Sequence record: OR776998
Source: Escherichia phage YX22
Direction: 5' to 3' (one strand)
Length of the DNA stretch: 64,000 nt
Positions 28,678-59,936 of the stretch are shown here, one piece after another. Position 1 is the first letter of the stretch; every line of letters begins with the position of its first letter. Under the pieces are notes generated by a model. The model was given only the letters and a program-made list of their open reading frames with translations, was not told the origin of the DNA and searched no databases. The position numbers were made by a program, and so were the translations under genes.

Positions 28678-28689
28678 AGTGATTATTAC

Positions 28690-33324: not shown

Positions 33325-33330
33325 TTGAAG

Positions 33331-36703: not shown

Positions 36704-36707
36704 GATA

Positions 36708-36780
36708 ATACCCCATAAAGGATGACCAATATGGGGTATTTAGGCTGAACTAATAAATTTATGAACAAAGGTATAACAAG
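36708..36780. repeat. promoter/leader repeat, copy B
   Basis: Matches 33331-33404. Only the first 20 nt of the small plus-strand ORF survive here. Confidence 0.8.
36737..36743 (-). promoter_or_regulatory. late-promoter-like core CTAAATAcccc
   Basis: Forms an 11-bp inverted repeat (36707-17 with 36730-40). Confidence 0.55.
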
Positions 36781-36801
36781 AACCCTGCCGAAGAGGGGGT
36801 T
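36781..36801 (-). terminator. degenerate stem-loop after the 993-aa gene
   Basis: AACCC...GGGTT, at the position where the other cassettes have terminators. Confidence 0.35.
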
Positions 36802-36805
36802 AGTT

Positions 36806-39787: not shown

Positions 39788-39824
39788 TTCAAATACCCCT
39801 AAATGTGTTCGTTTCATCTAGGGG

Positions 39825-39831
39825 TATTTAG
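39825..39831 (-). promoter_or_regulatory. late-promoter-like core CTAAATAcccc
   Basis: Forms an 11-bp perfect inverted repeat (39791-801 with 39819-29). Confidence 0.55.
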
Positions 39832-39839
39832 TTTTCACT

Positions 39840-41030: not shown

Positions 41031-41032
41031 TT

Positions 41033-41887
41033 TTAACTCCTTGAACTTTCTAGGAATACAGTAAACCCAGCAGGATGGAAATGCTGACGGAAGACGCGGT
41101 CAAACACACCTTCAAAATCAGATACGTTGCCAGGAACTCTTATCACATACGTGAATTCATCATAGTAGTAATCGTCACGCATTCCTGTCGCGCCGTCACA
41201 TTCAAAGTTGTCATCCAGGCCACCAATTGCTTCCTTGGGATAATACACACTCACTGGGCAACCAAAGTAAATCCAGAAGAACAATTCAATCGCTTTCTTC
41301 GTCCCGCGAATGCGATAAATGTGTTTAAGTAACTTCAACCAGCGTACATGGTCCAGTGTCCGGCGTTCAGTTCCCTCGACATACACAGAGAGTGTGTCTC
41401 CGTCTGAAGTCACCAAACTGTCCGAACCAACTGGCACAAACTTCCCGAACTCCAGGAAGGACTTATCAACCGTTCTCTGGAATCCAAAATCAGCATACCA
41501 ATCGTCGATGCGTTCGTTCTTGTCTTCCATTGAGATTAATGGTCGACCGTCCACGTCCAGCAAATCTTCGAAGTCTAGCGCCATCATGTTCTCAAACGTG
41601 CGCGTCAGGAACTTGTCTTCCAAGAAGTCTTTGGCCTCAGTACCTGGCGTCTTGCGCTTCTTGATGTCAATCAACTGCTCAATAGGAGACTGATCCGTAT
41701 TTGGGTTCACCCAACCACCAGTGTCTGCCAGATACGCCAAGATCTCCTCTTCGGTGAATCCCTGCTGGCGATACAACCAGTTGAAGAACGTATCCATAAA
41801 CTCGATGAATACTGGGAATTCATTCTGGTAAAACAATGGGGTTTCATATTTCACCCCATTGTGTCCGTTATTAAGATCTTTGGACAT
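41033..41887 (-). CDS. baseplate wedge protein (P2 gpI-like)
   Basis: Lies between the gpJ-like gene and the fibre gene. Contains an IYRIRGTKKAIELFFWIYFG-type motif. Confidence 0.55.
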   Translation of the reverse strand: MSKDLNNGHNGVKYETPLFYQNEFPVFIEFMDTFFNWLYRQQGFTEEEILAYLADTGGWVNPNTDQSPIEQLIDIKKRKTPGTEAKDFLEDKFLTRTFENMMALDFEDLLDVDGRPLISMEDKNERIDDWYADFGFQRTVDKSFLEFGKFVPVGSDSLVTSDGDTLSVYVEGTERRTLDHVRWLKLLKHIYRIRGTKKAIELFFWIYFGCPVSVYYPKEAIGGLDDNFECDGATGMRDDYYYDEFTYVIRVPGNVSDFEGVFDRVFRQHFHPAGFTVFLESSRS

Positions 41888-43649
41888 AACGCACCTCCGG
41901 CTCCACAGTTACAGCACCGATGCGGAGCACCTGATTCTGTGTGGCCTGAATGTTCTGGTCAAGACCGTCTGGAGACACAATTATTGTCACACCCTCAGTG
42001 TTGTAGTTGGATACTATGATACGCTGGAGTTCAACAACGCCAGTCGCATAATCAACCTTTCCAACAGCTTGTACCAGATATTCCTTGGTCGTGTCTGTTG
42101 TACTCACCTTGTACATATTCAGGACACCACTGACGTCGCGTATGTAGTAAGTGAATTCGACCTCGGCCGGAAGCGGCTTAAACCCACTGATACGCACAGA
42201 ACCAGACGCAATCGAGCGCCCATAATCGAACGTGAAGCTGTCCAGTACCCCATAGTCTGGCTTGAAATGGCGCTTATACTTCACAGAAGTGATGTTTGAC
42301 ACTATCGATCTGTCCATGTCGGTGATTGCCGACTGTAACTGCTCTTTATCGAACAGTTCGTCGAATCCTTCTAGATTCCCCAAGCCCCAGTTGACAACAC
42401 CGTTCTTCACGACTGTCTTCAACTGCTCTTCGGTATAGGACGTGGAAGTCGGATCCCAGAACACGCGGGTGATGACATCAACATAAGTCAGTTCAGCGTC
42501 GACAATCTTGGGTGTGATCGTGCCCACATTGTACTTGTCTAACGTCGCCACGATATCTGCCTTCTCAGCGTCCGAGAGCGCCTCACCAACAGAAGGTATC
42601 ACAGCAATGTAAACGTATCCGGAGTCGGGCGGAGAGAGCGTGTCGCCGCCATATGCTTTGGCGCGGGAGACGTTAGAGAACAGACGCTCGGTCAACACAG
42701 CATAATCGACTTCGGCCACTGCCGCACCCTCAGCCTGATAAGCCAGCGGAGCAAGACGCTTGATGTCCTCAATGCTCTCTGGGTCCTTACCACCGGAAGA
42801 ACGTTCTGACACCAGCTCAACATCTACAAGGTTGAATCCCCCGATGGAAGACGCGGAGGACAAGGCAGTGATGTCATTGCCGTCTGCACCAGCTGTCTCC
42901 AGATACTGGAGGTACACGATGTTCCCGTCTTCTACTCGCTTACAGATATACCCATCACCGAATTCGAACGTGTACATCCCGTCCAACCCCAGCTCAACGA
43001 AGTAGAGTTGCGCATACTGGCTCAAATCGAACGGGCTGACATATCGTGAGAAGGTAGACCGCACGTCAGATGTCTCAGATTCCTGCACCTGCACCACCAT
43101 ATGGTCGATGTCCACGGAAGAAGATGGGATCACATAGGTAGAGATCGCGCTGCCTTCCACATCATAGGACTTGTACAGCCAGTTACCCTGTATGAGTTTG
43201 ATGTTCTCGAACTTGTAAGAGCCGTCTACAAGAGAGGCACTCACAGGTTGGTCAACCGTGAAGTTATAGGATTTTCCATCCTTCACCCCAATGAACATCG
43301 CGCGGCGATCCATCACAATCGTGTCTGGAGCCGTGCTGGCGTCATATGGAGTGACTGTGACGTTTGCGTACAGGTACGCTGCCTGGTAGTTGTGAGGGGT
43401 GTAAGATAAGAACCCCGCCGCCAGACCGACATTAGAACGCTGTTGAGCAGAGTGAAGATGGCTTTCGCCATTCAACATGTTCTGCATGAACCCGATAGAG
43501 TTGGCATCCGAGGCCAAGATACGCACGATTGCACTGAGACCAGAACCTTCAAAGTCATAATCCTTGAAAGTTGGATCAGCTTTCATGCGCTTCTTGATAA
43601 GATACTCGAAAGCCCTGACATCGAGTGAAGGGACTGTTTGCGTGGCCAT
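41871..43649 (-). CDS. baseplate wedge protein (gpJ / T4 gp6-like)
   Basis: 593 aa from the ATG at 43649 (MATQTV) with a GGAGAT SD. It is the first gene behind a late motif. Confidence 0.55.
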   Translation of the reverse strand: MATQTVPSLDVRAFEYLIKKRMKADPTFKDYDFEGSGLSAIVRILASDANSIGFMQNMLNGESHLHSAQQRSNVGLAAGFLSYTPHNYQAAYLYANVTVTPYDASTAPDTIVMDRRAMFIGVKDGKSYNFTVDQPVSASLVDGSYKFENIKLIQGNWLYKSYDVEGSAISTYVIPSSSVDIDHMVVQVQESETSDVRSTFSRYVSPFDLSQYAQLYFVELGLDGMYTFEFGDGYICKRVEDGNIVYLQYLETAGADGNDITALSSASSIGGFNLVDVELVSERSSGGKDPESIEDIKRLAPLAYQAEGAAVAEVDYAVLTERLFSNVSRAKAYGGDTLSPPDSGYVYIAVIPSVGEALSDAEKADIVATLDKYNVGTITPKIVDAELTYVDVITRVFWDPTSTSYTEEQLKTVVKNGVVNWGLGNLEGFDELFDKEQLQSAITDMDRSIVSNITSVKYKRHFKPDYGVLDSFTFDYGRSIASGSVRISGFKPLPAEVEFTYYIRDVSGVLNMYKVSTTDTTKEYLVQAVGKVDYATGVVELQRIIVSNYNTEGVTIIVSPDGLDQNIQATQNQVLRIGAVTVEPEVRYVQRS

Positions 43650-46804: not shown

Positions 46805-46881
46805 GGTCCTGTAGCTCAGTCGGTTAGAGCAGTGAACTCATAATTCATTGGTCGTTGGTTCAAATCCAACCAGGATCACCA
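46805..46881 (+). tRNA. tRNA with CAU anticodon (Met by anticodon; ileX-like, so possibly Ile2 reading AUA)
   Basis: Full cloverleaf: GGTCCTG/CAGGATC acceptor, GCTC..GAGC D arm, GTGAA-CTCATAA-TTCAT, GTTGG-TTCAAAT-CCAAC, encoded CCA. The variable loop TTGGTCG matches E. coli ileX. Confidence 0.9.
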
Positions 46882-47134: not shown

Positions 47135-47223
47135 GGAAGGTTGCCCGAGAGGTTTAAGGGACTCGACTGCTAATCGAGTGGGGCTTTTAGCCCCCGAAGG
47201 TTCGAATCCTTCACCTTCCGCCA
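47135..47223 (+). tRNA. tRNA-Ser (GCU)
   Basis: Class II cloverleaf: GGAAGGT/ACCTTCC, CTCGA-CTGCTAA-TCGAG, long variable arm GGGGC-tttta-GCCCC, GAAGG-TTCGAAT-CCTTC, G-CCA. Confidence 0.9.
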
Positions 47224-47596: not shown

Positions 47597-48259
47597 ATGC
47601 GTAATGTTTCTATCTGGGAATTGAACGAAGTGATTTCCCATGACACCCCTCCAATTGTCAGACTCTTCCAATACAAGGGTGTCAAGCGCACTCTGAATGA
47701 GTTCCTGTCGCCTGTTTACGTCTACCGTGATGGCGGGTTCTTCCGCCGCGATAAAAACATCCCGAACCTTGGTATGACGTTTGATTTGAGTATCAAAGGC
47801 CAGGTTGTATTGATGGGTTATGGTAGCCTAGAACAATCTGAGAAAGGCCAGGGCGCTCCACTTATGGTCTTCGGTTCGTTTGAACAAGCCGTGCACTGGC
47901 TGATCAGAAACGGATATGATTTCTATGGCGAAGAAAGCGCCAATTGGCGTCGTCGCAAGGTCAAGTCTGTTAATCTGGTGGATTTGAATCTGATGTACCA
48001 GGCCATGGCTCGCGAGTACGAAAAGAATCTCGTCAAGCCTGTCGCCCAGGAGAACAATAACAATGTTGTTAACGACGCAACTGAGTCTTCTCATCATGAC
48101 GTGAACATCGTTCCAGCCTGTGAAACGAAAGCGCCGACACCGCCCACTCCTCCGGCCAGTCGTGTTCTGAATGATCAGGGCGCTCCGGTAAAACAAAAGG
48201 TCAAGAAGCCGACTTTCATGGAAAACATGATGAAGTTCCTTCGTCTGTTCAAGAAATAA
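47597..48259 (+). CDS. hypothetical protein
   Basis: 220-aa ORF with a GAGGA SD. Confidence 0.65.
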   Translation: MRNVSIWELNEVISHDTPPIVRLFQYKGVKRTLNEFLSPVYVYRDGGFFRRDKNIPNLGMTFDLSIKGQVVLMGYGSLEQSEKGQGAPLMVFGSFEQAVHWLIRNGYDFYGEESANWRRRKVKSVNLVDLNLMYQAMAREYEKNLVKPVAQENNNNVVNDATESSHHDVNIVPACETKAPTPPTPPASRVLNDQGAPVKQKVKKPTFMENMMKFLRLFKK

Positions 48260-48283
48260 GCCGAGATTCTCCTTTTCTATATT

Positions 48284-48319
48284 CCTGTAGATACGCTATG
48301 ATAAGCCAATGTCTACAGG
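48284..48319 (+). promoter_or_regulatory. hairpin overlapping the SD of the PLP-enzyme gene
   Basis: CCTGTAGA/TCTACAGG (8 bp). The 3' arm runs into the AGGAG SD, 10 nt before the ATG. Confidence 0.35.
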
Positions 48320-48328
48320 AGAAATAGA

Positions 48329-49522
48329 ATGAACAAGACCATCTTCGATATCCTTTCCCTCGACCGCAACCTGGTCCATTGGGAAGATTATCTCTACAAG
48401 CACACCCCGTGCGAACTTGTCGTCAACCCAGAAACCAACCAGCAGGTCTGGTTCAAGCGTGAAGATTATTTTGCGCCGCTGTCTAACTATGCCAACGCCA
48501 AGCAGGGCATCAATGGCAGCAAACTCCGCCAGGCCATCTGGTTGATGGTTGAGCACCTCAAGGCCGGAGGCTCCCCTGACATCATCCATGGTACTGTCGT
48601 TGGTAGTCCGCAGTCCCCTATGGCGACGGCAGTCTCTCGGCACTTCGGCGGCAAGACAACCACTGTACTCGGAGCGACCAAACCCACCACCTGTATGAAC
48701 CACGACATGGTGGCAATGTCAGCCTGGTTTGGTAGTGAGTTCAACTTCGTCGGCTCGGGTTACAACAGCACGATCCAGCCGCGCTGTAAGAAGTTGATCG
48801 AACAACAGAATCCAAAGGCGTATTATCTGGAATATGGTATCACCCTCGACCATACAGCGCATTCTCCTGAGCGCATCGCTGGCTTCCATATGCTGGGTGG
48901 CGAGCAGGTTGCCAACATCCCTGACCATATTACCGATCTGATTATCCCAGCCGGATCGTGCAACTCTTGCACAAGTATCCTGACCGGGCTGGCAATGCAT
49001 CCGAAGCCTAATCTGAAGCGTGTGTATCTGATTGGCATCGGTCCGAACCGCCTGGACTTTATCGAGAGCCGTCTGCGCATCATCGGCAAACATGCCAATC
49101 TGCCGCACATTGTCGACTTCACCCGTCGCTATCACGACAACCCAGACTATGTACACGGCAAGAAGGAGCTTCAGCATGCCTCTAAGAGCGTTTCGCTGGC
49201 TGGCCTCCTGAGTGGTATCAGACATAAGGAAGAGCCAGAGGTCGTGCTTCCTCGCTTTGAGGTACACCATTGGGATCTTCATACCACTAATTGGGTTCGT
49301 TACAATGACCTGATGGAATATCAGTGGGGTGATATTGAGTTGCACCCTCGCTATGAAGGCAAGGTCATGACCTGGATCCAGCAGAACAAGCCAGAGGTGC
49401 TCAATGAGAACACTCTGTTCTGGATTGTGGGTAGCAAGCCATACATCGATCCGATGAAGGCAGCATGCCCTGAGCTGGCTATCCCTGAAACAGTTCCTGT
49501 AAACGAATTCACCCCTTCCTGA
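48329..49522 (+). CDS. PLP-dependent enzyme, ACC deaminase / D-cysteine desulfhydrase family (fold type II)
   Basis: FKREDY...NGSKLRQ (PLP lysine), IPAGSCNSCTSILTG (phosphate loop) and HPRYEGKVM, compared with the family motifs KRED..GGNKxRKL, GSxxG and DPVYEGK. Confidence 0.7.
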   Translation: MNKTIFDILSLDRNLVHWEDYLYKHTPCELVVNPETNQQVWFKREDYFAPLSNYANAKQGINGSKLRQAIWLMVEHLKAGGSPDIIHGTVVGSPQSPMATAVSRHFGGKTTTVLGATKPTTCMNHDMVAMSAWFGSEFNFVGSGYNSTIQPRCKKLIEQQNPKAYYLEYGITLDHTAHSPERIAGFHMLGGEQVANIPDHITDLIIPAGSCNSCTSILTGLAMHPKPNLKRVYLIGIGPNRLDFIESRLRIIGKHANLPHIVDFTRRYHDNPDYVHGKKELQHASKSVSLAGLLSGIRHKEEPEVVLPRFEVHHWDLHTTNWVRYNDLMEYQWGDIELHPRYEGKVMTWIQQNKPEVLNENTLFWIVGSKPYIDPMKAACPELAIPETVPVNEFTPS

Positions 49523-49617
49523 CCCTCCTGAACACCCCATACAATCCGTGTGGGGTATCTATGAAAACCTTCCTCCAATATTTCCGAGAGGCGTCCTGTA
49601 CAAACCAGACCTGGCAC

Positions 49618-49624
49618 CTAAATA
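49618..49624 (+). promoter_or_regulatory. late-promoter-like core CTAAATAccccc (plus strand)
   Basis: 34 nt upstream of the 49658 ATG. It is the only plus-strand member. Confidence 0.5.
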
Positions 49625-49657
49625 CCCCCATATGGCTAACCCACTGAGGAACCCAAC

Positions 49658-50116
49658 ATGCCAACCTCCAAATTGTTTGAATCAGAATACACCAATGACA
49701 TCCCTGTATGGACTGGTGTTCAAGACGGTATCACGATTGAGCTGTTTGATCGTGAAGAGACAGGCGCGGAAGAGATCTATGCAGGCGTTGAAGGCACTGA
49801 TGTTGTCCGCGCCGCCGTAGCACTTGCCACCTTCCTGGAAGATGCACCGATTGATGGCGTGCCGTTCGAGGCGCACGTAGATCCTAAGGATCCGACCTCT
49901 ATCATCATTACAGTGAATGGGGTGCCATACACTTCGTACAGCATCGAGACGGACGAAGAGGGCAGCGGAGCGCTGTATATTGCCACCGACCTGCAGCTGG
50001 AAGACGATGAGATGGATTATCTGATTCAGAACGGGGTGCTGCCACCGTTTACCGATGAAGAACTGGACACGGAACTGGCTGCTGTCGGGGACGACGAAGA
50101 CTTCTGGGAAGAATAA
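49658..50116 (+). CDS. acidic hypothetical protein
   Basis: 152-aa ORF with a GAGGA SD. Confidence 0.6.
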   Translation: MPTSKLFESEYTNDIPVWTGVQDGITIELFDREETGAEEIYAGVEGTDVVRAAVALATFLEDAPIDGVPFEAHVDPKDPTSIIITVNGVPYTSYSIETDEEGSGALYIATDLQLEDDEMDYLIQNGVLPPFTDEELDTELAAVGDDEDFWEE

Positions 50117-50118
50117 GA

Positions 50119-50139
50119 AAAGGGGCGTTAAGCCCCTTT
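50119..50139. terminator. bidirectional terminator
   Basis: AAAGGGGC-gttaa-GCCCCTTT between convergent genes. Confidence 0.65.
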
Positions 50140-50141
50140 CT

Positions 50142-50693
50142 TCATTTCACCTTGCGAGTTGGATATTGGTTAAAGAGTTTGCCCAGCTTAGACACGTTGA
50201 TGATCGTCTGGGTCTTCCAGCGCTGGATCCCTTCCGGGGTAGTCACGGTCAGGATTGAATGCCCCCAAATGTGAGAACCGTCCAGCACAGCCGCGCTGTG
50301 GCTACCAATCTTGTCTTCCAGTTTGCAAATGAAAGATTCATACTGATGGGCAGCGTTGCAACGGGCTTCTTTGATGAACAGACGCTGGCGCTCTGGATCA
50401 GACTTGACGATGTTAGGCGCACCCACTTGATAAGAGCGGTTCGGCGGGTTATTGTCGGCGGTCAGGCTCATATACAAAGACTGCTTTGCCTTCATGTGTT
50501 GGTAATCGTGGTGATCCATTCTGATGCCAACAGTTGATGGCCAAGGAGCGCACTTCTGAATATCCCAGCCGTTGGCGGCTAGATCGTCCATCACGTTCTT
50601 GATGATTTTGTTCGCGTACTGCTCGGCAGCTTCTTCGGCTTGCGACAACAGAGGCTCAACAGCGATACGGACAGCAGTTTTTGGTATTGTCAT
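50142..50693 (-). CDS. hypothetical protein
   Basis: ATG at 50693 (MTIPKT) with a GAAGGG SD. Confidence 0.6.
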   Translation of the reverse strand: MTIPKTAVRIAVEPLLSQAEEAAEQYANKIIKNVMDDLAANGWDIQKCAPWPSTVGIRMDHHDYQHMKAKQSLYMSLTADNNPPNRSYQVGAPNIVKSDPERQRLFIKEARCNAAHQYESFICKLEDKIGSHSAAVLDGSHIWGHSILTVTTPEGIQRWKTQTIINVSKLGKLFNQYPTRKVK

Positions 50694-50739
50694 GATATAG
50701 CCCTTCAGTTCAAAGTAAGCCCCCGGAGGGGCTTTGTAA

Positions 50740-51048
50740 TTAGACAAAGATGAATTTAGAATCTTTGAATGTCAAGCGGGAGCAAACTTCTTCAACCGCG
50801 TCAACCACCATAAAATCGTTGAATGCTTTGTGTAGGGCTTTCAGGAAGGAAGCCGGAACCAGCCCACACGCTGGGTTGTCAAACAAAGCCGAAGAGACGA
50901 CAGAGTTGAAAGTTGAGTCTGGAGTACAAGACTGGGCAATCATAAGCGCTTCTGCGTTTCTCACTGCGTGGAACTTAAAGGTAGCAACAACGGTTTCTTT
51001 GTTATATTTAGCCAGTTGTGCTTCAAATTGTTCTTTTGTGATTGCCAT
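50740..51048 (-). CDS. hypothetical protein
   Basis: ATG at 51048 (MAITKEQ) with an AAGGA SD. Confidence 0.55.
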   Translation of the reverse strand: MAITKEQFEAQLAKYNKETVVATFKFHAVRNAEALMIAQSCTPDSTFNSVVSSALFDNPACGLVPASFLKALHKAFNDFMVVDAVEEVCSRLTFKDSKFIFV

Positions 51049-51091
51049 GATGTATTTCCTTCTCTTCAGATTGTTGTTTGTTCGTACTACA

Positions 51092-51117
51092 ATTAGAAGT
51101 ATACGCCAGTTATTGAA
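51092..51117 (-). promoter_or_regulatory. TTCAAT-N14-TCTAAT promoter-like element
   Basis: The minus strand reads TTCAATAACTGGCGTATACTTCTAAT upstream of the 51048 start. Confidence 0.4.
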
Positions 51118-51143
51118 GAAGTAAACTTTATTCAATAAATATT

Positions 51144-51356
51144 TTAATAAATTTTGAACTCTGCTCCTTTATACACAGCCGACCCTCGTTCTATGAGACC
51201 GTCAGGGACAATTACCTTTGTTGGCCAACCACCATCTGGAGCCTTAACAGTCAGGCGCGTCTTATGATCGCCCAGCTGTGTTTGTTCATATATCCTTCCG
51301 CGCACTATCGTCGCCCCGCCTTGGGTGACGAGCAATCTCTTGTTTACCACATTCAT
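51144..51356 (-). CDS. hypothetical protein
   Basis: 70-aa ORF. Confidence 0.5.
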   Translation of the reverse strand: MNVVNKRLLVTQGGATIVRGRIYEQTQLGDHKTRLTVKAPDGGWPTKVIVPDGLIERGSAVYKGAEFKIY

Positions 51357-51375
51357 TCCCTAAACACCAAAAGAA

Positions 51376-51393
51376 AGGGGAGTTTCCTCCCCT
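51376..51393 (-). terminator. terminator
   Basis: AGGGGAG-tttc-CTCCCCT. TTTCTTTTGG follows on the minus strand. Confidence 0.6.
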
Positions 51394-51398
51394 TGAAC

Positions 51399-51971
51399 TT
51401 ATTTCTTCAGATCAGGCCACGCACCAGAGGTCGCAGTAGACCCAGCTGGGGGAGCAGACTCAAGATCGGGAGAACCCGACTGAGTAACAACAGTGGGATC
51501 TTTCTGTACGACCCGAACCCCAAATTGCTTGAGAGCATCCATAGCTTGGGCTTTTCGCCTGTTGCTTTTGTAGTGGTTGTAGCCTTTGATACCGAATGAT
51601 GCACTAATTGCTGTCAATAACGAATAGGTATACCATTCAGGTGCGGTATCTAGTGCCTGAAGGCCACCGATTACTGCTTTGATGAAATCCCCTTTATGAT
51701 ACTCACCAGGGAACAGAATCAGTTCCACAACCGGAGCAGTCATGACGAGGATGGCGGGTATGGCCAACACGATAGTCCAGAATTCGTCTTTCCAAGACCC
51801 GCCGACTTCGGTAATCTTAGACAGCTCCCAATCTGAGGAGGACTTGATGGCCTCCAGCTTGACGTCGTGTTTGGCCTGTACAACTTCCCGCTTATATTGG
51901 ATCAAATCAGTCCCGAGGTTCCAGAGTTGCTTGAGCACCCCTGGGATCATACCAACGAGGGGGATTGCCAT
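51399..51971 (-). CDS. membrane protein (possible holin-like)
   Basis: ATG at 51971 with an AAGGAG SD. TM segments FWTIVLAIPAILVMTAPVVELILF and YSLLTAISASFGI. The holin idea is speculative. Confidence 0.5.
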   Translation of the reverse strand: MAIPLVGMIPGVLKQLWNLGTDLIQYKREVVQAKHDVKLEAIKSSSDWELSKITEVGGSWKDEFWTIVLAIPAILVMTAPVVELILFPGEYHKGDFIKAVIGGLQALDTAPEWYTYSLLTAISASFGIKGYNHYKSNRRKAQAMDALKQFGVRVVQKDPTVVTQSGSPDLESAPPAGSTATSGAWPDLKK

Positions 51972-52050
51972 AATAAACTCCTTGGTCAATGAATGGCTCT
52001 ATGGTTAAATATGCCCACGTGCTAACGGCACGGATAACCTGGAGAATTAC

Positions 52051-55050
52051 ATGACCGTTTTCTATACGAACGTTGCCCGCAGGGGCAATGACCTGTTGAT
52101 TCGAATTGCAGATGACATGGGTAATCGCCGTCTGTTGAAAAAGAAATTCGAACCCACTCTCTATTTACCCACGGCTGACTATTCAAATGTTGAAAAGGTC
52201 GGCCTTCTCAATGAACCCCTGGTAGCCAAGCAGTTCCCTTCCATGCGTGACGCTGATAACTATCTTGAAGAGTACAAGGAAGTCCAGGGTGCTGCCATTT
52301 ACGGGCAGACCGATTATGCATACCAGTTCATTGCCCATAGCTTTCCTGGAAAGATTGAGCCGGATTATTCCAACATCCATATTGCTAACCTCGATATCGA
52401 AGTGTTCTCCGCCGGGTGGAAAGATGGAAAGATGACCAAAGGTCCATTCCCTCACCCAACCATTGAGCAGCAGACGTTCAAAGGAAATGAGGCGCGCATT
52501 CGCCGCTTCCATAAACAAGTGCTGGCCAACCATGACTTCATCCGTGAGCACTTCCCTGGTTCTTTCATCAGCAACAACGTCACTGATCAGTTCCCTATCA
52601 TTGACAGCAACGGCAAGATCACCCAAGACATGAATGCGGCGTTCCCTATCACGCTTATCCAGCTTCAGGACATGGCGACCAATAAGTTCATGGTGTGGGG
52701 TATGCCGTGCGCGAAGGATCGTGCGAAGTTCAGATACGATCCAGAAGACGCGGAGATCGGTGGACTTGAGGTTGTCTATCAGGAGTTCACTACTGAACAA
52801 GATCTGCTGCGCTCTTTCCTGGACTTCTGGTCGGAGCGTCAGTTTGATGGCTGGACAGGCTGGAACATTGAAACGTTCGATAGCCCGTATCTTGTTGAGC
52901 GCATGAATCAGGTTCTGGGTGAGGCTGAAACGTCGCGCCTCAGTCCTTGGGGTATCATTAAGAAGCGTATCATTCGCGATAAGAAGGGCGATATCACGAC
53001 GTATCAGTTCGTGGGTTGCCCTATGCTCGATTATATGCAGATCTACAAGAAACACACGTACACCACCCGTGAACGCTACTCTCTTGACTGGATTGCGTAT
53101 TGTGAGCTGGGTGAGAAGAAGATGGACTACAGTGAGAGCAAGTCACTCTTTGATCTGTACTTCAACGACTACTGCAAACACACCCGATATGGTATCAAAG
53201 ACGTTAAGCTGGTATGGCGACTTGAACAGAAGCTGCGCCTGCTCCAGCTGATGTTCGTCCTGGCCTACCGCACCAAGTCCAACTATGAAGACGGTCTGGG
53301 CACTGTGGCTCCGTGGCTGGCCATGTGCTACTATCGTCTGTATGAGAAGGGGATAGTGCCTAAGATCCAGCGTGTATACGATGGTCCGACCGACTTTGAG
53401 GGTGCATACGTCATGGATGTGACACCAGGAATCTACTTCTGGGTCTTCTCGGAAGATTTGAACTCCCTGTATCCTCACATCATTCAGCAGTACAACCTCG
53501 GTCCAGAGACTATCGTTGGCGACAAACACCAGCGCCGTGAGATTATTGAGGCTATGTGTGAAGAGCTGGCTGCTCAGATGAATAACATGGCAACGCCGAT
53601 GCACAAACGTCGGTTGATGAAAGCCCTTCACGACAAGCTGTTGCGTGCGGTTGACGAACGCCTGCAGGTTGTTGATGAGTTGGTTGCCCTGGGTGAGTTC
53701 CACTTTGAAACCCTGCGCCGTTACAACGTGTCGTTCACGCCGAACGTTCAATTCTTCAGCAACGAGAAGATGTCGTTCCTGTCTGAAATCATGCGCGGTA
53801 TCTACAGCGACCGTAAAGTAGAGAAGGCCAAGGGTCTGAAGTATGAGCAGTGGGCTGGCTGGTGTAAAGAGATGTCGAAGGGTGACTTCCATCTTGAGTC
53901 TGCCATGAAGTCTCGCTACTATGACCCAGAGTGGTATGAAGAGCACAAGAACATTGATCTTGATGCCCTGACCGAAGTGATGAAGAAGTGGGAAGACCTG
54001 GGCGTCGCTCAAGATACCCTACAGCAAGGTCTGAAGATCTTGATGAACGCAGGTTATGGCGCTATCTCGAACGTCTGGTTCAAAGAGTACTTCAACCTCA
54101 ACATTGCCGAAGCCATCACCACATCCGGTCAGCTGATCAACAAGTGGAATAAGCGTTACACTGATGACTATCTGAACAAGCTGTGTGGTACAACAGGCCA
54201 GGACTTCGTCATCGCAGGGGATACCGACTCCAACTACATCTGCATTGAGCGTCTTGTCAAGCAGTTGTGGCCTGATGTTACTGACCATCATGCTATGGTT
54301 GATAATATCGACCAATGGATCAAAGACAACTACCAGCCGAAGACCAATGAGTGGGCACAGCTTCTGTGTAACACCATGAACGGATTTGAACAGCGCATGG
54401 TGTGGGAGCGTGAGGTCATTGCGTCAGCCGCTGTCTGGCGAGCCAAGAAGATGTATGCCATGGCCGTGTACGACAGTGAGGGTATCAAGTACGAGAAGCC
54501 GAAGATCAAGTTCAAAGGTCTGGAAGCCCGCAAGTCCACCACGCCGGAATGGTGTCGTGAACGCCTTGTCAAGTGCTATGAGAAGATCCTACTCGGCACC
54601 GAAGAGGAAGTACAGACGCTCATCTCCCAGTACAAAGAGGAGTACATGAAACTCTCTGTAGACGATATCGCCAAGGCTTCCGGCGTGTCCGACATAGAGA
54701 AGTGTGTGGCTGCTGACGGATCGTTCATCTCTGGTGCTCATTTTGCTGCAAAGGCTTGTGTGGGTTACAACCGTCTGGTTGAGAAGAACGAAGATCTGGG
54801 TCTACCGATGATCGAGTCGGGTGATAAGGTACAGATGGTGTTGTTGAAGCCAGGCAACCCATTCGGCCAGAATTACTTTGCATATCCTGAGTTCTTCCCC
54901 GAGGAGCTTGGTCTGGGTAAATGGGTGGATTATCAGGCGGCCTTTGAGAAGTCCTTCATTGATCCGATTCAGTCTATCCTCGACGTGGTCGGCTGGTCAC
55001 ACAAGCGCCGTGTGAACCTTCTTGCCATGATGCAAAAGAAGAAAGGTTGA
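52051..55050 (+). CDS. family B DNA polymerase (T4 gp43-like)
   Basis: ExoI LDIEVF, motif A DLNSLYPHII, motif B KILMNAGYG, motif C IAGDTDSNY. Confidence 0.95.
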   Translation: MTVFYTNVARRGNDLLIRIADDMGNRRLLKKKFEPTLYLPTADYSNVEKVGLLNEPLVAKQFPSMRDADNYLEEYKEVQGAAIYGQTDYAYQFIAHSFPGKIEPDYSNIHIANLDIEVFSAGWKDGKMTKGPFPHPTIEQQTFKGNEARIRRFHKQVLANHDFIREHFPGSFISNNVTDQFPIIDSNGKITQDMNAAFPITLIQLQDMATNKFMVWGMPCAKDRAKFRYDPEDAEIGGLEVVYQEFTTEQDLLRSFLDFWSERQFDGWTGWNIETFDSPYLVERMNQVLGEAETSRLSPWGIIKKRIIRDKKGDITTYQFVGCPMLDYMQIYKKHTYTTRERYSLDWIAYCELGEKKMDYSESKSLFDLYFNDYCKHTRYGIKDVKLVWRLEQKLRLLQLMFVLAYRTKSNYEDGLGTVAPWLAMCYYRLYEKGIVPKIQRVYDGPTDFEGAYVMDVTPGIYFWVFSEDLNSLYPHIIQQYNLGPETIVGDKHQRREIIEAMCEELAAQMNNMATPMHKRRLMKALHDKLLRAVDERLQVVDELVALGEFHFETLRRYNVSFTPNVQFFSNEKMSFLSEIMRGIYSDRKVEKAKGLKYEQWAGWCKEMSKGDFHLESAMKSRYYDPEWYEEHKNIDLDALTEVMKKWEDLGVAQDTLQQGLKILMNAGYGAISNVWFKEYFNLNIAEAITTSGQLINKWNKRYTDDYLNKLCGTTGQDFVIAGDTDSNYICIERLVKQLWPDVTDHHAMVDNIDQWIKDNYQPKTNEWAQLLCNTMNGFEQRMVWEREVIASAAVWRAKKMYAMAVYDSEGIKYEKPKIKFKGLEARKSTTPEWCRERLVKCYEKILLGTEEEVQTLISQYKEEYMKLSVDDIAKASGVSDIEKCVAADGSFISGAHFAAKACVGYNRLVEKNEDLGLPMIESGDKVQMVLLKPGNPFGQNYFAYPEFFPEELGLGKWVDYQAAFEKSFIDPIQSILDVVGWSHKRRVNLLAMMQKKKG

Positions 55051-55076
55051 TTCAATAAACCAAAGGGGGATATAAT
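55051..55076 (+). promoter_or_regulatory. TTCAAT-N14-TATAAT promoter-like element
   Basis: TTCAATAAACCAAAGGGGGATATAAT directly after the polymerase stop. Confidence 0.55.
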
Positions 55077-55112
55077 TCCCCCTGTTAACCCTTTGACAAA
55101 CAGGTGATTGAA

Positions 55113-55454
55113 ATGAAACTCAATAAGATTCTTCTGGTGTGCGCTCTGGCTTTCTCTACCACTGCGTGCTCCACCCTTCTGGACGTTGCGTCTACTGTAG
55201 ACCTTGACGCGCCGACGTTCACCAATGAGCAGGCTGTGTCCAAGATGGAAGACACCATCAAGGCGCATGCGGCGTTGGATAACGCCACCCCAGGTCCGCT
55301 CCAAACTGTCTGCAACTATGACGATTCCATCCAGGAAGACGAAACTTACCACTGCATCACCTACGTGAAGCAGGCCTCCGTCGTTCTGTATGCAGATTGT
55401 ACCGAAGAACAGTGTGTTGCTACAGGCTACGATAAAGTTGAGGAAGACAAATGA
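55113..55454 (+). CDS. putative lipoprotein
   Basis: MKLNKILLVCALAFSTTAC is a signal peptide with a lipobox-like TTAC. AGGTGA SD. Confidence 0.55.
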   Translation: MKLNKILLVCALAFSTTACSTLLDVASTVDLDAPTFTNEQAVSKMEDTIKAHAALDNATPGPLQTVCNYDDSIQEDETYHCITYVKQASVVLYADCTEEQCVATGYDKVEEDK

Positions 55455-56230
55455 ACAACCTGGTTTGTATCTATGATATGAAATCAAAGGTCGGTGGTCT
55501 GTATCGCGTCCTCGTGGATGTTGACCTGACGTTGGTCGACAGCCTCTCCCCTTGGGTGCAGTGGTTCAATGAAGAGAACATCGCCGCCGCTGCTATCGCT
55601 ACGGGGGAACATAAGTCATACCAGTTCCAGCCGATTACTAAAGAGTGTTATATGTCCCATGCTGGCGACCTGGCTATTCTGATGCGTGAACGTGCGCATC
55701 CGGCGTGGCTATACCATGAAGTCCAATTGGGGATGCACAAACAACGTGTGCCAAGCGGTAACGATCCTATGGACTGGTGGCGTCGCCCTGACTTGTACGC
55801 CAAGATGAACCCGCTCCCCGGCGCTTACGAGTTCCTGGTAAATCTGAAGGATATCTTGCTTGAAGATTTCGACAATGTTGAATTCATCGCGGTGTCGAAG
55901 TGCGAGCCGGAACACGAGCGCAGCAAGCGCCAGTTTGTCTATGACAAGTTCCCTGGTATCTTCAACGGGTTTGTCAGCACCGACGAAAAGCATCTGCTGG
56001 CTGGCGATGTCCTGATTGATGACAATCCGAAGTATGTCGAGCCATGCGGCCTGAACAACATCTTTGTCATCTTTGTTCCTCAGGGCAATTATGAAAAACT
56101 GGATCTTTCGAACTCGGAAGATATGCTTTATATTAAACCAGTAGAAGGCCAGAACCACTTCGACTTCCTGAATCACAATATTATTGAAGTGGTCAATCGC
56201 CTGATTAGTCATTATCAATACGTCCGATAG
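55451..56230 (+). CDS. HAD-superfamily 5'(3')-deoxyribonucleotidase-like protein
   Basis: DVDLTLVD (DxDxT motif I) and a late VLIDDNP (DD motif). Confidence 0.55.
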   Translation: MNNLVCIYDMKSKVGGLYRVLVDVDLTLVDSLSPWVQWFNEENIAAAAIATGEHKSYQFQPITKECYMSHAGDLAILMRERAHPAWLYHEVQLGMHKQRVPSGNDPMDWWRRPDLYAKMNPLPGAYEFLVNLKDILLEDFDNVEFIAVSKCEPEHERSKRQFVYDKFPGIFNGFVSTDEKHLLAGDVLIDDNPKYVEPCGLNNIFVIFVPQGNYEKLDLSNSEDMLYIKPVEGQNHFDFLNHNIIEVVNRLISHYQYVR

Positions 56231-56239
56231 GAGGACATC

Positions 56240-56545
56240 GTGCAAGAACAATCCAAGTTTGGGGAAACCCCAGACAAGCGTTCCGGTGATAGCGACATGG
56301 ATAGCGTGATTAACCATGTGAACAACTTCATTCGTCAGCAGGAGACTCCAACTCCTATCGGTGCAGCCAAGGCTCTTCATGATGTACTGGTGAAGATCGG
56401 CCAGCGCTCTGAAGCGGATGAAATCTTCTATAACTTTGAAGACCAGTATAAAGTGAAGTTTGAAGAAAACGGTCGTCCGCAGGTTGCTGTGTTCTGGGCA
56501 CCTTGGCTGGGCGGCGTGAGCTGGCGTATTGAGGATGCTGTGTGA
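56240..56545 (+). CDS. hypothetical protein (GTG start)
   Basis: AGGAGG SD 6 nt before the GTG. Confidence 0.5.
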   Translation: MQEQSKFGETPDKRSGDSDMDSVINHVNNFIRQQETPTPIGAAKALHDVLVKIGQRSEADEIFYNFEDQYKVKFEENGRPQVAVFWAPWLGGVSWRIEDAV

Positions 56546-58143
56546 TGTCTCGCTACCATTACACATATAGGATAACCCATGTCCCAACTGGTAGATTCTA
56601 CGTCGGGATTCGGTCTTGTTCATGCACCCCCGAACAAGATCCCTATATGGGTTCTGGTGTGATCATCAAAAGGTTGTTGGAATCTCACCCCGCTTCTGAA
56701 TTCTTAAAGACGATAATAGAAAAGTTTGAAACCAGGTTGGAAGCATCCGACCTGGAGTCTATTATTGTTACGGAAGAGTTACTGTTGGACCCATTATGCC
56801 TGAACCTGAAATTGGGAGGAGACAATTCTATCATCCCAAACCAATTTAAGGCGGCGTTGGCTAGGACTGGCAAGAAATACAAATCTGGTATAAATCCTTG
56901 GGATGATCCAGAATACCGGGAACGTGTAATAAAATCAATAAAGGAGAACAGGGGTAATTCTCCCTACCCATTCATGGTTTCAAATGGTTATTGGTGGGTT
57001 TGGAAGGACGCCTGTAGGATCTATGATAGATGGGTGAACAACGGTGGTACTGTGAATCCTACCTGTATGCCAAAACGAGGATGTGGTTACAAATCTATCG
57101 GATTGTGGTATTCTAAACTACTGGACACAGAGTATCGTAATCTAAAGGGCGATGAGAGCGTCTTTCGTAATATGATCGCCATGTTTAAAGATGGTTGGAT
57201 TCCCAAAGAGGACAAACGTTTTATGACTATGATAAATTCTAGCGTGACGCCGGGTATTGTCGTTATTCGCGGGACAAGTGGAACGGGAAAGGGGACTCGT
57301 GTCGTTCAATTCCTTGAGTGGTTGAGAACCAAATATGAGCCAGAACTCATAGAATACGAATTCGACAAGAAGATGATCCAGGTTGGGTTTTGGTTCAAGG
57401 AAATCAATCTGGTGTTCATCGGCAAGTATACAGTGTCCAACAAATCAGGTCTAGCATCATGGACTTCCATGGATTTCATACACTCCACTCTCAAGTCTTC
57501 TGAGATGGCCAATTCGTTGTTGAAGTATCTCAAAATAAAGTTCAAAGATGCAACTATCATCTTGGAGGGGGAACCTATGATGCAGAGCCATCGTTGGCGT
57601 CCCGAGTTCGTACACCAGGACTTGGGGTTCAACAACATGGCATTCATCTCCTTTATTTACCAAGCGCGGGAAGATTACGACAAACGTATCATCGGTCGTT
57701 CTGGTAAGGCGGCGAAGGACACTGGCTGGGGAAGAAATGAACAATACACCAAGGATCACGTCAAGATCATGGGTGAGTACGCTTCCATCGGATACGAACT
57801 TGAACCAGACTCTCAGAATGAGTTGTTCATTGCAAAGGCAGCGAATGAAAATGGTGTAAAGGCAGTTGGTTGGAATATACTGAAATTCTTCGATGCCCCT
57901 CTCCACTTTATTGGTAGTTTTATTATAGATTTTGTTGGATTGAGAGGGTTGTCCAAAGAAGAGTTTCAAAAATATTGCGACACCACACCAATGTTGCGCA
58001 AGATTAAGGGTAGCAACCCTTTGGCGCACAGAGTCCCTGAGAAGCCGCAGAAGGCATCCAAAACTAAAACCAAGGCGAGCGCCCAGCCAGAAGCAACGAA
58101 GGCAGCGTCGCGCTCTCTCCTTGACCTGATGAAGAAGGGGTGA
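56545..58143 (+). CDS. GIY-YIG nuclease domain fused to a P-loop NTPase/kinase-like domain
   Basis: The N-terminus YTYRITHVPTGRFYVGIRS..DPYMGSG is GIY-YIG. From about residue 240, VVIRGTSGTGKGT is a Walker A and TIILEGEP is Walker-B-like. It is one uninterrupted frame and is A+T-rich. Confidence 0.65.
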   Translation: MSRYHYTYRITHVPTGRFYVGIRSCSCTPEQDPYMGSGVIIKRLLESHPASEFLKTIIEKFETRLEASDLESIIVTEELLLDPLCLNLKLGGDNSIIPNQFKAALARTGKKYKSGINPWDDPEYRERVIKSIKENRGNSPYPFMVSNGYWWVWKDACRIYDRWVNNGGTVNPTCMPKRGCGYKSIGLWYSKLLDTEYRNLKGDESVFRNMIAMFKDGWIPKEDKRFMTMINSSVTPGIVVIRGTSGTGKGTRVVQFLEWLRTKYEPELIEYEFDKKMIQVGFWFKEINLVFIGKYTVSNKSGLASWTSMDFIHSTLKSSEMANSLLKYLKIKFKDATIILEGEPMMQSHRWRPEFVHQDLGFNNMAFISFIYQAREDYDKRIIGRSGKAAKDTGWGRNEQYTKDHVKIMGEYASIGYELEPDSQNELFIAKAANENGVKAVGWNILKFFDAPLHFIGSFIIDFVGLRGLSKEEFQKYCDTTPMLRKIKGSNPLAHRVPEKPQKASKTKTKASAQPEATKAASRSLLDLMKKG

Positions 58144-58145
58144 TC

Positions 58146-58343
58146 ATGAAACGGTTGTCTAATTATCTGTTGTTCATTGGTCTGGTTATGGCAGCCGTTT
58201 CAATGTGTACTGCCCTAGCCTATCATTTCACCCCTCTGGACTTAACAACCTCAGAGAAGTTGAACGTGACTGTGATGTACTGTATTGGCGCGGTGATGTC
58301 TATCGGCGCTGCTGGTTACAAAATATTCAAGGAACCAAAATGA
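58146..58343 (+). CDS. small membrane protein (2 TM)
   Basis: LLFIGLVMAAVSMCTALAY and VMYCIGAVMSIGAAGY. Confidence 0.5.
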   Translation: MKRLSNYLLFIGLVMAAVSMCTALAYHFTPLDLTTSEKLNVTVMYCIGAVMSIGAAGYKIFKEPK

Positions 58344-58717
58344 AAATTCAAATCCCTCGCGATGCTGTGGCTGTTGCGATTGACTACACCGGAAACGCCA
58401 AGCACATTACTGCCGTGCGCCTGATTCCTGAAAAGAACTGCGTCATCCCTCAGTTCCAGCTGAATGCTAATCCGTCGTCCAAAGACTTCGGCAAGTGGTT
58501 GCAGGCTGCTCCGTTCCGTACCCAGACGAATGCTCAGATGTTCATCTCGGGTAAGACCCAAACTGCAGCCCGTCTGTGGTTCGTGACCGCTGACCGTCGC
58601 TTTGTCGATATGTGGGAACGTCCGATGGGGTTCGTGAAGCCGGAAGATATTCAGCTGGATCCTGAGCCTGAAGCTGTGGCTCCTGAAGAGGAAGCGAAAG
58701 ATGCATCATTTATCTAA
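58340..58717 (+). CDS. hypothetical protein
   Basis: The ATG at 58340 overlaps the previous stop (ATGA). The earlier part of the ORF-track frame is discounted. Confidence 0.5.
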   Translation: MKIQIPRDAVAVAIDYTGNAKHITAVRLIPEKNCVIPQFQLNANPSSKDFGKWLQAAPFRTQTNAQMFISGKTQTAARLWFVTADRRFVDMWERPMGFVKPEDIQLDPEPEAVAPEEEAKDASFI

Positions 58718-59936
58718 AATGCCGACGGGCTATACGCCTCCGGCTGAATGGAAGTACCCGATTGACCTGGCTGTTGATTATCGCAAGCCTGAGAATCGCA
58801 TGTACCTGCTCAAGGCTTGGGTGGAGGCGCTGTCCTACACAGAAGAGCACAACCAGCAGATGCGTCTGATGGACTATGCGATCGAAGTCACTGAAGGCAT
58901 CAGCCTCGAACAGAAAGTCGAGCGCAAGATCTGGATGGCATTCCTGTGGGGTTGTTGCTATAACGCTGTCGGACCGTGGACAATCTACAGTGAGTTCCCT
59001 GTACCACCCCAGTCCAAAGAAGAGATGCAGCGCTTCTCAGACTGGTACAACCTGAACTTTGAACGCATGCGATTCGATACCGACTGTCGCTACCGCAAGT
59101 CCAAGATGATTCCGTGTGTTCAGTCCTATATTGACTGGCTGGCTGGCCGTACTCAATATGACGCTTTCCGTGGGATGTTGGTGTGCATCGATAAGACAGA
59201 ACAATTCACCCAGCTGTGGGACACGGCGATGTCCTGGAAATACTTCGGTCGCCTGAGCGCCTGGAACTTCCTGGAAGCCCTGAACATGGTCTTCGGGAAC
59301 GAATACACCATTGACGTCCCTGGGTTCATGTTGCGTGACCGTGATGGAAGCGAGTCCAACCGTAATGGCGCGGCGTTCTTGTCCAACCGTGACGATTGGG
59401 TGACTAAACACGGGAAGAAAAAGATCAACGGTTGTCCTATCACGGATGAAGAGTGTGACATCCTTGAGGCCGACCTTGAGCAGGCGTTCCAGGATTGTGT
59501 GGCTGAGTTCGGGCACCTGACGTTCATCAACCGCCTGAACTTTGAAACCTCCGGTGCTTGTTGGCTGAAGAAATTCTTCCGACTGAAGAATACCCGTTAC
59601 ATCGGGTGGGACGCAGAGCGTACCTGGGATGAGATAGACTACATGGAACGCGTCTGGCCTGAATACTCCTGCGCAGCGCTCTGGGAAGCCCGTTCTCTCT
59701 GGCTGCCAGATACCCTGTTGTGTGAAAAGGCTCCTGCAGGGCACGTTCCAGGCGTCCAGAAGTGGAAGATGCCTGTGTTCTTTGAGACTGGTGTTCCTCT
59801 GCATATCTGGCACCTGCAAAGGGGTACGCGCTGGGAACCGTCCGAGGTATGTACGAACCTGAAGATGCCTGTGCGCAAGGTTGAGGACAAGCCGAAGTCC
59901 AGCAGCGTCAACCTCATGACACTCTTGAAACGCTGA
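58701..59936 (+). CDS. hypothetical 411-aa protein, Trp/Cys-rich
   Basis: GAGGA SD. No motif that I can name with confidence. Confidence 0.6.
   Translation: MHHLSKMPTGYTPPAEWKYPIDLAVDYRKPENRMYLLKAWVEALSYTEEHNQQMRLMDYAIEVTEGISLEQKVERKIWMAFLWGCCYNAVGPWTIYSEFPVPPQSKEEMQRFSDWYNLNFERMRFDTDCRYRKSKMIPCVQSYIDWLAGRTQYDAFRGMLVCIDKTEQFTQLWDTAMSWKYFGRLSAWNFLEALNMVFGNEYTIDVPGFMLRDRDGSESNRNGAAFLSNRDDWVTKHGKKKINGCPITDEECDILEADLEQAFQDCVAEFGHLTFINRLNFETSGACWLKKFFRLKNTRYIGWDAERTWDEIDYMERVWPEYSCAALWEARSLWLPDTLLCEKAPAGHVPGVQKWKMPVFFETGVPLHIWHLQRGTRWEPSEVCTNLKMPVRKVEDKPKSSSVNLMTLLKR

Follow-up and report, generated by a model that had tools for sequence, protein, structure and literature searches.

Thymidine-hypermodification genes around the DNA polymerase of an Aglimvirinae phage: a kinase fused to a probable homing endonuclease and putative clamp-binding tails

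The genes that surround the replicative DNA polymerase in the 64,000-nucleotide stretch of Escherichia phage YX22 analysed here (OR776998; hereafter the window) raise the question of whether they form a pathway for thymidine hypermodification, as the first-pass annotation had hypothesised from the letters of the sequence. Both the protein families and the synteny with Salmonella phage ViI (Kuttervirus) agree with that hypothesis. The window derives from an Aglimvirinae (Ackermannviridae) phage, with several deposited genomes ~97% identical to it, and an ORF check placed all four open reading frames named in the first-pass annotation where it had put them, on the + strand. Pfam searches with the 5-HMUDK and aGPT-Pplase families in view returned, as predicted there, HMUD2 (5-hmdU DNA kinase) and ADDT (aGPT-Pplase2). 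The region is syntenic gene for gene with the ViI locus, in the same order around the polymerase, and that locus carries gp226, gp243, and gp247, the three enzymes biochemically shown to make 5-NeOmdU, with decarboxylase (gp226), kinase (gp243), and serine transferase (gp247) activities demonstrated (PMC8989533). The region thus very probably encodes the post-replicative half of the pathway by which Ackermannviridae hypermodify thymidine to 5-NeOmdU, arranged around the replicative polymerase as in ViI. This pathway is already known (Lee et al. 2018, 2021) and is described as conserved throughout the Ackermannviridae (PMC11721090), the interpretation of the gene set being right without being new; the new points are a polymerase-like tail on DNA-acting enzymes, and a kinase gene that moves as a fusion with a probable homing endonuclease.

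The last enzyme of the pathway lies furthest upstream, with the 397 aa product of 48329-49522 (+) sharing 92% identity over 394 aa with ViI gp226 and matching PHROG 3650 over its full length. As the gp226 orthologue, it is predicted to be the PLP-dependent decarboxylase that converts 5-O-serinylthymidine in DNA to 5-NeOmdU. The ORF is 27 codons shorter than in the ViI annotation because of a stop codon upstream, and the Schiff-base lysine is kept within the motif GINGSKLRQ (K92 of ViI, K65 here). Its earlier description as a PLP enzyme of the ACC-deaminase fold stands with respect to the PLP enzyme, given the identity to gp226; the corresponding Pfam family PALP (fold-type II PLP), however, is matched weakly (E=4.4e-7), at 30 bits against a cut-off of 35, and phmmer returned no PDB match for this protein.

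The 411 aa product of 58701-59936 (+), previously left unassigned, belongs to the Pfam amino acid:DNA transferase family ADDT (PF18724, formerly aGPT-Pplase2), with E=4.5e-60 and 203.7 bits (cut-off 26.2). It aligns to ViI gp247 without gaps at 90% identity, and because of this it would be expected, as the gp247 orthologue, to join L-serine via the side-chain oxygen to 5-phosphomethyl-dU. Ten of the 11 cysteines of gp247 are kept, among them C287 of the ETSGAC motif, and E282-T283-S-G-A-C287 is identical in the two proteins, with the catalytic Cys and Glu assigned by motif; the active site of PaMx11 gp46 comprises E243/T244/C247 (PMC11472151). The glycine:DNA transferases of the Pseudomonas phages M6 and PaMx11 (gp51 / gp46 PUGT) have the ADDT family, the Cys-mediated covalent mechanism, and the E-T...C motif in common with this protein, however they use glycine through N, whereas the ViI-type enzyme uses serine through O. 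At this distance, phmmer gives no PDB match for the transferase.

Between these two genes lies the B-family replicative DNA polymerase (52051-55050, +; 999 aa), which matches Pfam DNA_pol_B_exo1 and DNA_pol_B and PHROG 262, shares 87% identity with its ViI counterpart, and must incorporate 5-hmdUTP. Its reading frame is uninterrupted, in contrast to the polymerase of Dickeya phage LIMEstone1, which is split by intron endonucleases. The HAD deoxynucleotidase proposed at 55451-56230 (+; 259 aa) is likewise borne out, as an NT5C/HAD 5'(3')-deoxyribonucleotidase-like protein, by a Pfam NT5C score of 35.8 bits against a cut-off of 24.8, and by the sequence DVDLT at residues 23-27, which conforms to the DxDxT motif. 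It is 76% identical to ViI orf239, and its position next to the pathway genes is conserved. We regard it as a candidate nucleotide-pool enzyme, with a role in the pathway suggested only by this conserved synteny; the five ViI proteins that reconstituted the modification do not include the nucleotidase, and the word “nucleotidase” is absent from the paper reporting them (PMC5889632).

The fourth gene supplies the kinase. A P-loop kinase-like domain had been placed at about 57240-58143, and it is real and lies in the same place, matching the Pfam family HMUD2 (PF18747, “5-hmdU DNA kinase 2”) over profile positions 2-298 of 298 with E=3.8e-156 and 519 bits (cut-off 25). The match spans residues 237-532 of the ORF at 56542-58143 (nucleotides ~57250-58140), and we delimit the domain, of the ViI gp243 type, to 57223-58143 (+). 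The domain is 47% identical to ViI gp243 and 47-50% identical to the ViI-type allele in general, representing a divergent “allele B”, with the P-loop GTSGTGKGTR and the motifs SNKS.LASWTSMD, EGEP, WRPE, GRSGK, and FDAPL invariant across seven diverse members. With a dN/dS of 0.04 it is under strong purifying selection, and it may be expected to phosphorylate 5-hmdU in DNA, as ViI gp243 does.

Taken in order, a thyA-like enzyme encoded outside the window would make 5-hmdUMP, judging by a relative 97-98% identical to the window, and the polymerase would put 5-hmdU into DNA, where the kinase domain would phosphorylate it. The active-site cysteine of the transferase would then displace the phosphate, with L-serine becoming attached via its hydroxyl, and the PLP enzyme would decarboxylate the serine adduct to 5-(2-aminoethoxy)methyl-dU, a base that blocks many restriction enzymes. 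The nucleotidase probably biases the pyrimidine pool, and the kinase and transferase are probably brought to freshly replicated DNA by a C-terminal tail that mimics that of the polymerase. The first-pass annotation saw no hydroxymethylase gene in the window, and tblastn with the ViI thyA-like dUMP hydroxymethylase, the kinase gp67, and gp160 gave no match anywhere within it. The relative, vB_CECAV_050, encodes a hydroxymethylase (77% identity), gp67 (88%), dNMP kinase (89%), and gp160 (83%); since its hydroxymethylase, gp67, and gp160 (aGPT-Pplase1) all lie beyond the part of its genome that aligns with the window, these three genes are expected elsewhere in the YX22 genome.

The kinase ORF extends upstream of the kinase domain by ~226 codons, on which the earlier annotation was silent, and these encode a probable Seg-like GIY-YIG homing-endonuclease domain (56545-57222, +) in frame with the kinase. 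This domain matches PHROG 314 “homing endonuclease” (E=2.6e-24), with the GIY-YIG motifs YHYTY...FYVG and E...N visible, a sub-threshold match to Pfam SegE_GIY-YIG (E=0.067), and a dN/dS of 0.10-0.20. The kinase of YX22, a divergent allele, forms an in-frame fusion with this probable homing endonuclease, which ViI lacks. The same 531/532-aa ORF, 94% identical, is found in LIMEstone1 as ORF186 “putative homing endonuclease F-LimXI” (HE600015), annotated as an endonuclease only, with the kinase domain unnamed. Comparison with phage RPN242 by blastn defines a mosaic tract at 56555-58017, which comprises the endonuclease and the initial ~265 kinase codons and shows no DNA similarity to RPN242, with flanks on either side that are 96-97% identical; GC content drops to 0.445 within 56-58 kb. 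The endonuclease occurs in 28 phage records from four genera and the linked kinase allele in an equal number, with direct reading of the fusion in eight loci. This patchy distribution and the sharp recombination borders are those of a mobile element. The chimeric kinase gene is probably what a homing-endonuclease cassette left behind.

The endonuclease domain has the GIY-YIG hallmarks in common with the free-standing Seg endonucleases of T4-like phages, which are known for intronless homing and co-conversion of flanking markers, and its closest relatives elsewhere carry Seg-like endonuclease annotations (27-37% identity). As in Seg homing, the sharp recombination tracts take in part of the adjoining gene; unlike free-standing Seg enzymes, however, the putative endonuclease here is probably fused translationally to an adjoining gene of an essential pathway. 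There is a serious, if somewhat less favoured, chance that the fusion amounts to a stop-free ORF, with the kinase made alone from an internal start codon (ATG, 57223) and unaffected by the endonuclease part, as this candidate start has a GAGG 11 nt upstream, and as the other allele has endonuclease and kinase as distinct, overlapping genes. However, the in-frame junction persists in four genera, also in comparisons whose synonymous sites have reached saturation, and both the fusion and a lone kinase could be produced. The endonuclease-kinase cassette offers a clean natural case of a homing endonuclease carrying a pathway gene between phage genera.

The part of this locus that could matter more is the C-terminal tail that the kinase and transferase share with the polymerase. 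The polymerase ends in RRVNLLAMMQKKKG (55006-55047, +), a putative sliding-clamp-binding epitope in a position analogous to that of the T4/RB69 gp43 tail (PMC2988020). The kinase ends in SRSLLDLMKKG (58108-58140, +), preceded by a K/S/A/P/T-rich linker and encoded beyond the end of the mosaic tract, in the resident 3' segment, and the transferase sequence ends in SSVNLMTLLKR (59901-59933, +). With the motif pattern set after the sequences were viewed, a six-frame scan of the window (302 ORFs, each 50 aa or longer) places it at the end of these three proteins only, and a scan of ~147 kb of ViI at the end of the polymerase, gp243, gp247, gp160, and a single 70-aa protein, with no others. The tail changes between lineages, enterobacterial phages having the VNLLxMM set, Vibrio phage K476 ending its polymerase, kinase, gp247-like, and gp160-like proteins in K/R-K/R-L-W (KLW/RLW), and Vibrio phage YC ending its polymerase and kinase in RLF. 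Polymerase and kinase tails match in all 15 loci that hold both (17 further loci examined), as does the transferase tail in all 14 of those 15 where a transferase is present.

The T4 clamp gp45 is bound by gp43, gp33, and gp55, whose C-terminal epitopes sit on flexible linkers and can be exchanged for one another (PMC2988020). As here, the T4/RB69 ligands have a short hydrophobic motif, shared between the polymerase and other proteins, at the very end of the chain and behind a variable linker. By this analogy, which the covariation supports, we infer that the shared tail is a putative sliding-clamp-binding tail. A whole-genome scan of K476 shows that its gp33 homologue is also tailed, as T4 gp33 is, ending in KRLF, and the clamp gene lies just beyond the window. 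The sequence of the tail nevertheless differs from that of T4/RB69, the enterobacterial tails being basic and Lys/Arg-rich where the T4 epitopes are acidic (PMC2988020), and the putative clients here are enzymes that modify DNA bases, a class not known to bind the clamp in T4. The basic character, together with a gp55 homologue that lacks the motif, leaves room for a less likely but serious reading, in which the tails are general basic DNA-binding tails or bind some other shared partner, for instance SSB or the helicase loader. A non-specific basic tail, however, needs no exact KLW/RLW end in four unrelated K476 proteins, the motif switches in step with the polymerase, and both the polymerase and gp33, textbook clamp ligands of T4-type phages, bear it. 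On balance we lean towards the gp243-type kinase, the gp247 transferase, and its gp160 paralogue being sliding-clamp clients by way of polymerase-like tails, which would couple hypermodification physically to the replication fork. No report of a clamp-like tail on hypermodification enzymes was found among the papers searched.

The cassette can swap the kinase body between genera, with the recipient's own tail kept in two of three mapped tracts (this window and Taipeivirus KpS110), which fits selection for a clamp-matched tail. The PaMx11 homologue of the transferase binds DNA weakly (PMC11472151), and clamp-riding kinase and transferases, if true, would explain how low-affinity enzymes reach nascent 5-hmdU DNA. 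Recruitment by the clamp, if true, might also help make the modification partial and lineage-dependent. PCNA-tethered DNMT1 and UNG2 would then be a parallel to the phage enzymes.

For the pathway itself, the main result is one of annotation, in that this phage almost certainly packages DNA containing 5-NeOmdU, with consequences for its sensitivity to restriction and to CRISPR, for sequencing and cloning, and for selecting therapy phages. Measured levels of 5-NeOmdU stand at ~40% of T for both ViI and CBA120 and at 16% for a Taipeivirus, and a literature search found no direct measurement for the Aglimvirinae. This variation by genus, together with the divergence of the kinase allele, could be read as a sign that the same enzyme families yield a product, or an extent of modification, unlike that of ViI, be it through the kinase allele, changes in the transferase, or a partly inactive pathway. 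We consider this improbable, however, as the enzymes that set the chemistry, the transferase and the decarboxylase, share 90% and 92% identity with their ViI counterparts, with catalytic residues intact, and as the kinase supplies the leaving group only and is itself strongly constrained. Far less probable still is that these genes form a routine nucleotide-metabolism cluster and take no part in modifying DNA, a reading which the GenBank labels of relatives and the generic PALP match might suggest, and which is refuted by the strong matches to the specific families HMUD2 and ADDT and by orthology to ViI enzymes that act on DNA in vitro. The labels in question are often “threonine dehydratase”, “guanylate kinase”, “homing endonuclease”, or “hypothetical protein”, and the records of certain relatives already annotate these genes as hypermodification genes.

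The four genes at 48329–49522 (PLP enzyme), 55451–56230 (HAD protein), 57223–58143 (kinase domain), and 58701–59936 (transferase), all on the + strand, were found where the first-pass annotation had placed them, and its hypothesis of a DNA-modification gene set proved correct, with both family assignments and orthology identifying a pathway of the ViI type. The P-loop domain, described there as kinase-like, matches Pfam HMUD2 (“5-hmdU DNA kinase 2”, E = 3.8e-156) over residues 237–532 of the ORF at 56542–58143, whilst the 411-aa protein at 58701–59936, marked for a profile check against aGPT-Pplase, matches ADDT (“amino acid:DNA transferase”, E = 4.5e-60), and the proposed HAD deoxynucleotidase matches NT5C with 35.8 bits, exceeding the cut-off. 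The Pfam PALP match of the PLP enzyme falls below threshold. Six of the region's proteins were scanned against NCBIfam without a match, and phmmer found none in the PDB for the kinase, the transferase, or the PLP enzyme.

The gene order in the record of Salmonella phage ViI is the same as in the window (orf226, two small genes, three minus-strand genes, the polymerase, orf237, orf239 (NT5C), orf240, orf243, orf244, orf245, and orf247), with pairwise identities of 92% between the PLP enzyme and gp226, 90% without gaps between the transferase and gp247, 76% between the NT5C protein and orf239, and 47% between the window kinase and gp243. Lee et al. (2021, PMC8989533) demonstrated in vitro the phosphorylation of DNA-borne 5-hmdU by gp243 and gp67, the attachment of L-serine by gp247 to yield 5-O-serinylthymidine, and the decarboxylation of this product by gp226 to 5-(2-aminoethoxy)methyl-dU (5-NeOmdU). 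The proposed Schiff-base lysine of gp226, K92 (Lee et al. 2021, PMC8989533), has its counterpart in K65 of the window PLP enzyme. Essential residues of gp247 include a Cys and a Glu close to it (Lee et al. 2021), and the window transferase keeps 10 of the 11 gp247 cysteines, including C287 within an ETSGAC motif that corresponds to E243/T244/C247 in the PaMx11 structure (PMC11472151). The NT5C protein may also have a role in the pathway. As the ViI-type pathway is already known, the novelty of the gene system itself is low. The PLP ORF is 397 aa, owing to in-frame stop codons at 48209–48328, upstream of its start; the gene is annotated as 424 aa in ViI and RPN242, with the short form also present in ZQ1 and LIMEstone1.

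Megablast with 48329–59936 returned 283 phage records, the closest (~97% identity) being Escherichia phages vB_EcoM-ZQ1, PC3, and PH4, Salmonella phage vB_CECAV_050, and Enterobacter phage fGh-Ecl02, followed by Dickeya Limestoneviruses at ~90%, all of the Ackermannviridae, subfamily Aglimvirinae. An IMG/VR contig encodes a kinase 100% identical to that of the window. The first-pass caveat that no hydroxymethylase gene lies within the window was borne out by tblastn with the ViI thyA-like hydroxymethylase, and the ViI gp67, gp160, dNMP kinase, and dUTPase-like genes likewise have no match within the 64 kb, from which the sliding-clamp gene is also absent, the window starting directly after it. 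All of these genes are present in vB_CECAV_050, which is 97–98% identical to the window, with 61–89% identity to ViI, and a complete 5-NeOmdU pathway is therefore expected in the genome from which the window derives. A review describes the modification genes as conserved family-wide, and measured 5-NeOmdU is on record for ViI and CBA120 (PMC11721090) and for a Taipeivirus; our literature search found no base composition or 5-NeOmdU measurement for Aglimvirinae DNA (Limestonevirus, Agtrevirus).

The kinase is a mobile chimera. The window is 96–97% identical to RPN242 through 56554 and again from 58018, with the intervening 1.46 kb lacking DNA similarity and marked by a dip in GC content. In RPN242 and AG3 this site is occupied by another GIY-YIG gene, a SegD-like one that stands as an ORF of its own ahead of a ViI-like kinase, and in ViI there is no endonuclease here. 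The first 228 residues of the window ORF match a homing endonuclease family (PHROGs), and the kinase body shares only 50% identity with its RPN242 counterpart, the last ~48 residues being identical. By tblastn the kinase alleles are bimodal, with 28 records of at least 80% identity, 321 below 60%, and none between; the endonuclease domain is likewise found in 28 records. The in-frame endonuclease and divergent kinase allele (window 56545–58017; comparison loci L031, 6323–7912, and L053, 3495–5090) occur in four genera, represented by Limestonevirus, Agtrevirus-like phages, Kutterviruses PMBT18 and UTK0004, and Taipeivirus KpS110. UTK0004 has flanks 98% and 95% identical to ViI around an Aglimvirinae-like tract of ~2.3 kb holding the endonuclease, the kinase, and small downstream ORFs, and in KpS110 endonuclease and kinase are likewise fused in frame, the junction being conserved and the tail Taipeivirus-type. 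The length of the conversion tract varies, and in the window and KpS110 it ends short of the resident tail.

A decaying or frameshifted kinase, suspected from the 47% identity to ViI, is rejected by a dN/dS of 0.04 for the kinase body and by the integrity of all motifs; the endonuclease has a dN/dS of 0.10–0.20. That the fusion is an error peculiar to the window is ruled out by the same ORF in LIMEstone1, ZQ1, SNUABM-02, KpS110, and UTK0004, and the fusion frame stays open even at synonymous saturation. A free-standing kinase could also arise by initiation within the ORF, where an ATG at 57223 is preceded by GAGG at a distance of 11 nt. The ORF is not new, having been annotated in LIMEstone1 in 2012 as “homing endonuclease F-LimXI”, and its kinase half often goes unnamed in annotations; it is the inter-genus endonuclease–kinase cassette that a specialist might find new.

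The resident tail of the kinase (58108–58140, + strand), ending SRSLLDLMKKG, resembles in pattern those of the polymerase (55006–55047, +), ending RRVNLLAMMQKKKG, and the transferase (59901–59933, +), ending SSVNLMTLLKR; ViI gp160 ends GSVNLLDRLKKPE. A pattern built from these tails is found in 3 of the 302 six-frame ORFs of the window, only these three proteins, and across 147 kb of ViI only in the polymerase, gp243, gp247, gp160, and one 70-aa protein. Since the pattern is post hoc, the test that matters is covariation. In Vibrio phage K476 the polymerase ends ARKLW, the kinase TKKLW, the gp247-like protein TRKLW, and the gp160-like protein TKRLW; in Vibrio phage YC the polymerase ends ARRLF and the kinase TNRLF; and Erwinia, Serratia, and Klebsiella members carry VNL[LM]-type tails on polymerase, kinase, and transferase. 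Among 17 further loci, polymerase and kinase tails agree in all 15 that hold both, as does the transferase tail in 14 of 14 of these that hold one (shared tails are seen in the window and in comparison loci L010, L011 (K476), L012, L017, and L018). The PLP decarboxylase, gp67-type kinase, and hydroxymethylase have no such tail. Among 1312 ORFs of the whole K476 genome, the only other motif bearers are a gp33 homologue (KTKRLF), a ligase-adjacent 101-aa protein, and two unannotated short ORFs, with the gp33 homologues of K476 and ViI alignable through their tails.

The T4 clamp, gp45, is bound by gp43, gp33, and gp55 through C-terminal epitopes that can replace one another and that sit on flexible linkers (PMC2988020). 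Between ViI and K476 the clamp has diverged to 34% identity and the polymerase to 49%. From tail covariation, the gp33 tail, the T4 precedent, and this clamp divergence, we infer that the kinase and transferases are putative sliding-clamp ligands, the joint motif switch in Vibrio relatives and the gp33 tail suggesting that the modification enzymes may be tethered to the clamp. A clamp link to these enzymes is absent from Lee 2018, Lee 2021, the PaMx11 structure paper, and the 2026 diaminopropane-thymine paper, and combined full-text searches returned nothing relevant; literature coverage is incomplete and hence no proof of novelty, though a specialist might find this reading new.

Pfam-negative proteins of 70–101 aa near the DNA ligase gene also carry the lineage-appropriate tail (ViI Vi01_049c, 30355–30567 in L004, ending VNLLSLMRK; locus L027, 28220–28432; K476_0080, 9223–9528 in L014, with TRKLW), making them, by sequence, candidate additional clamp ligands. 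The K476 polymerase (L011, 5045–8023) has an internal KKRVNLFAL, homologous to the enterobacterial terminal motif, followed by a Lys-rich extension of ~30 residues ending KLW, and its tail thus holds two candidate clamp motifs.

The window polymerase gene (52051–55050, 999 aa) is uninterrupted, as in ViI, AG3, and SNUABM-02; one or two intron-type endonuclease insertions split it in LIMEstone1, as well as in ZQ1 and RPN242, two phages that are otherwise the nearest relatives. The PLP gene is preceded by tRNA-Met(CAT) (46805–46881) and tRNA-Ser(GCT) (47135–47223), with the same two in RPN242 and five tRNAs at this site in vB_CECAV_050. GC content is 0.42–0.46 at 28001–42000, compared with ~0.50 elsewhere, a region corresponding, by comparison with vB_CECAV_050, to the genes for tail spikes and tail fibres, whose exchange between phages is known.
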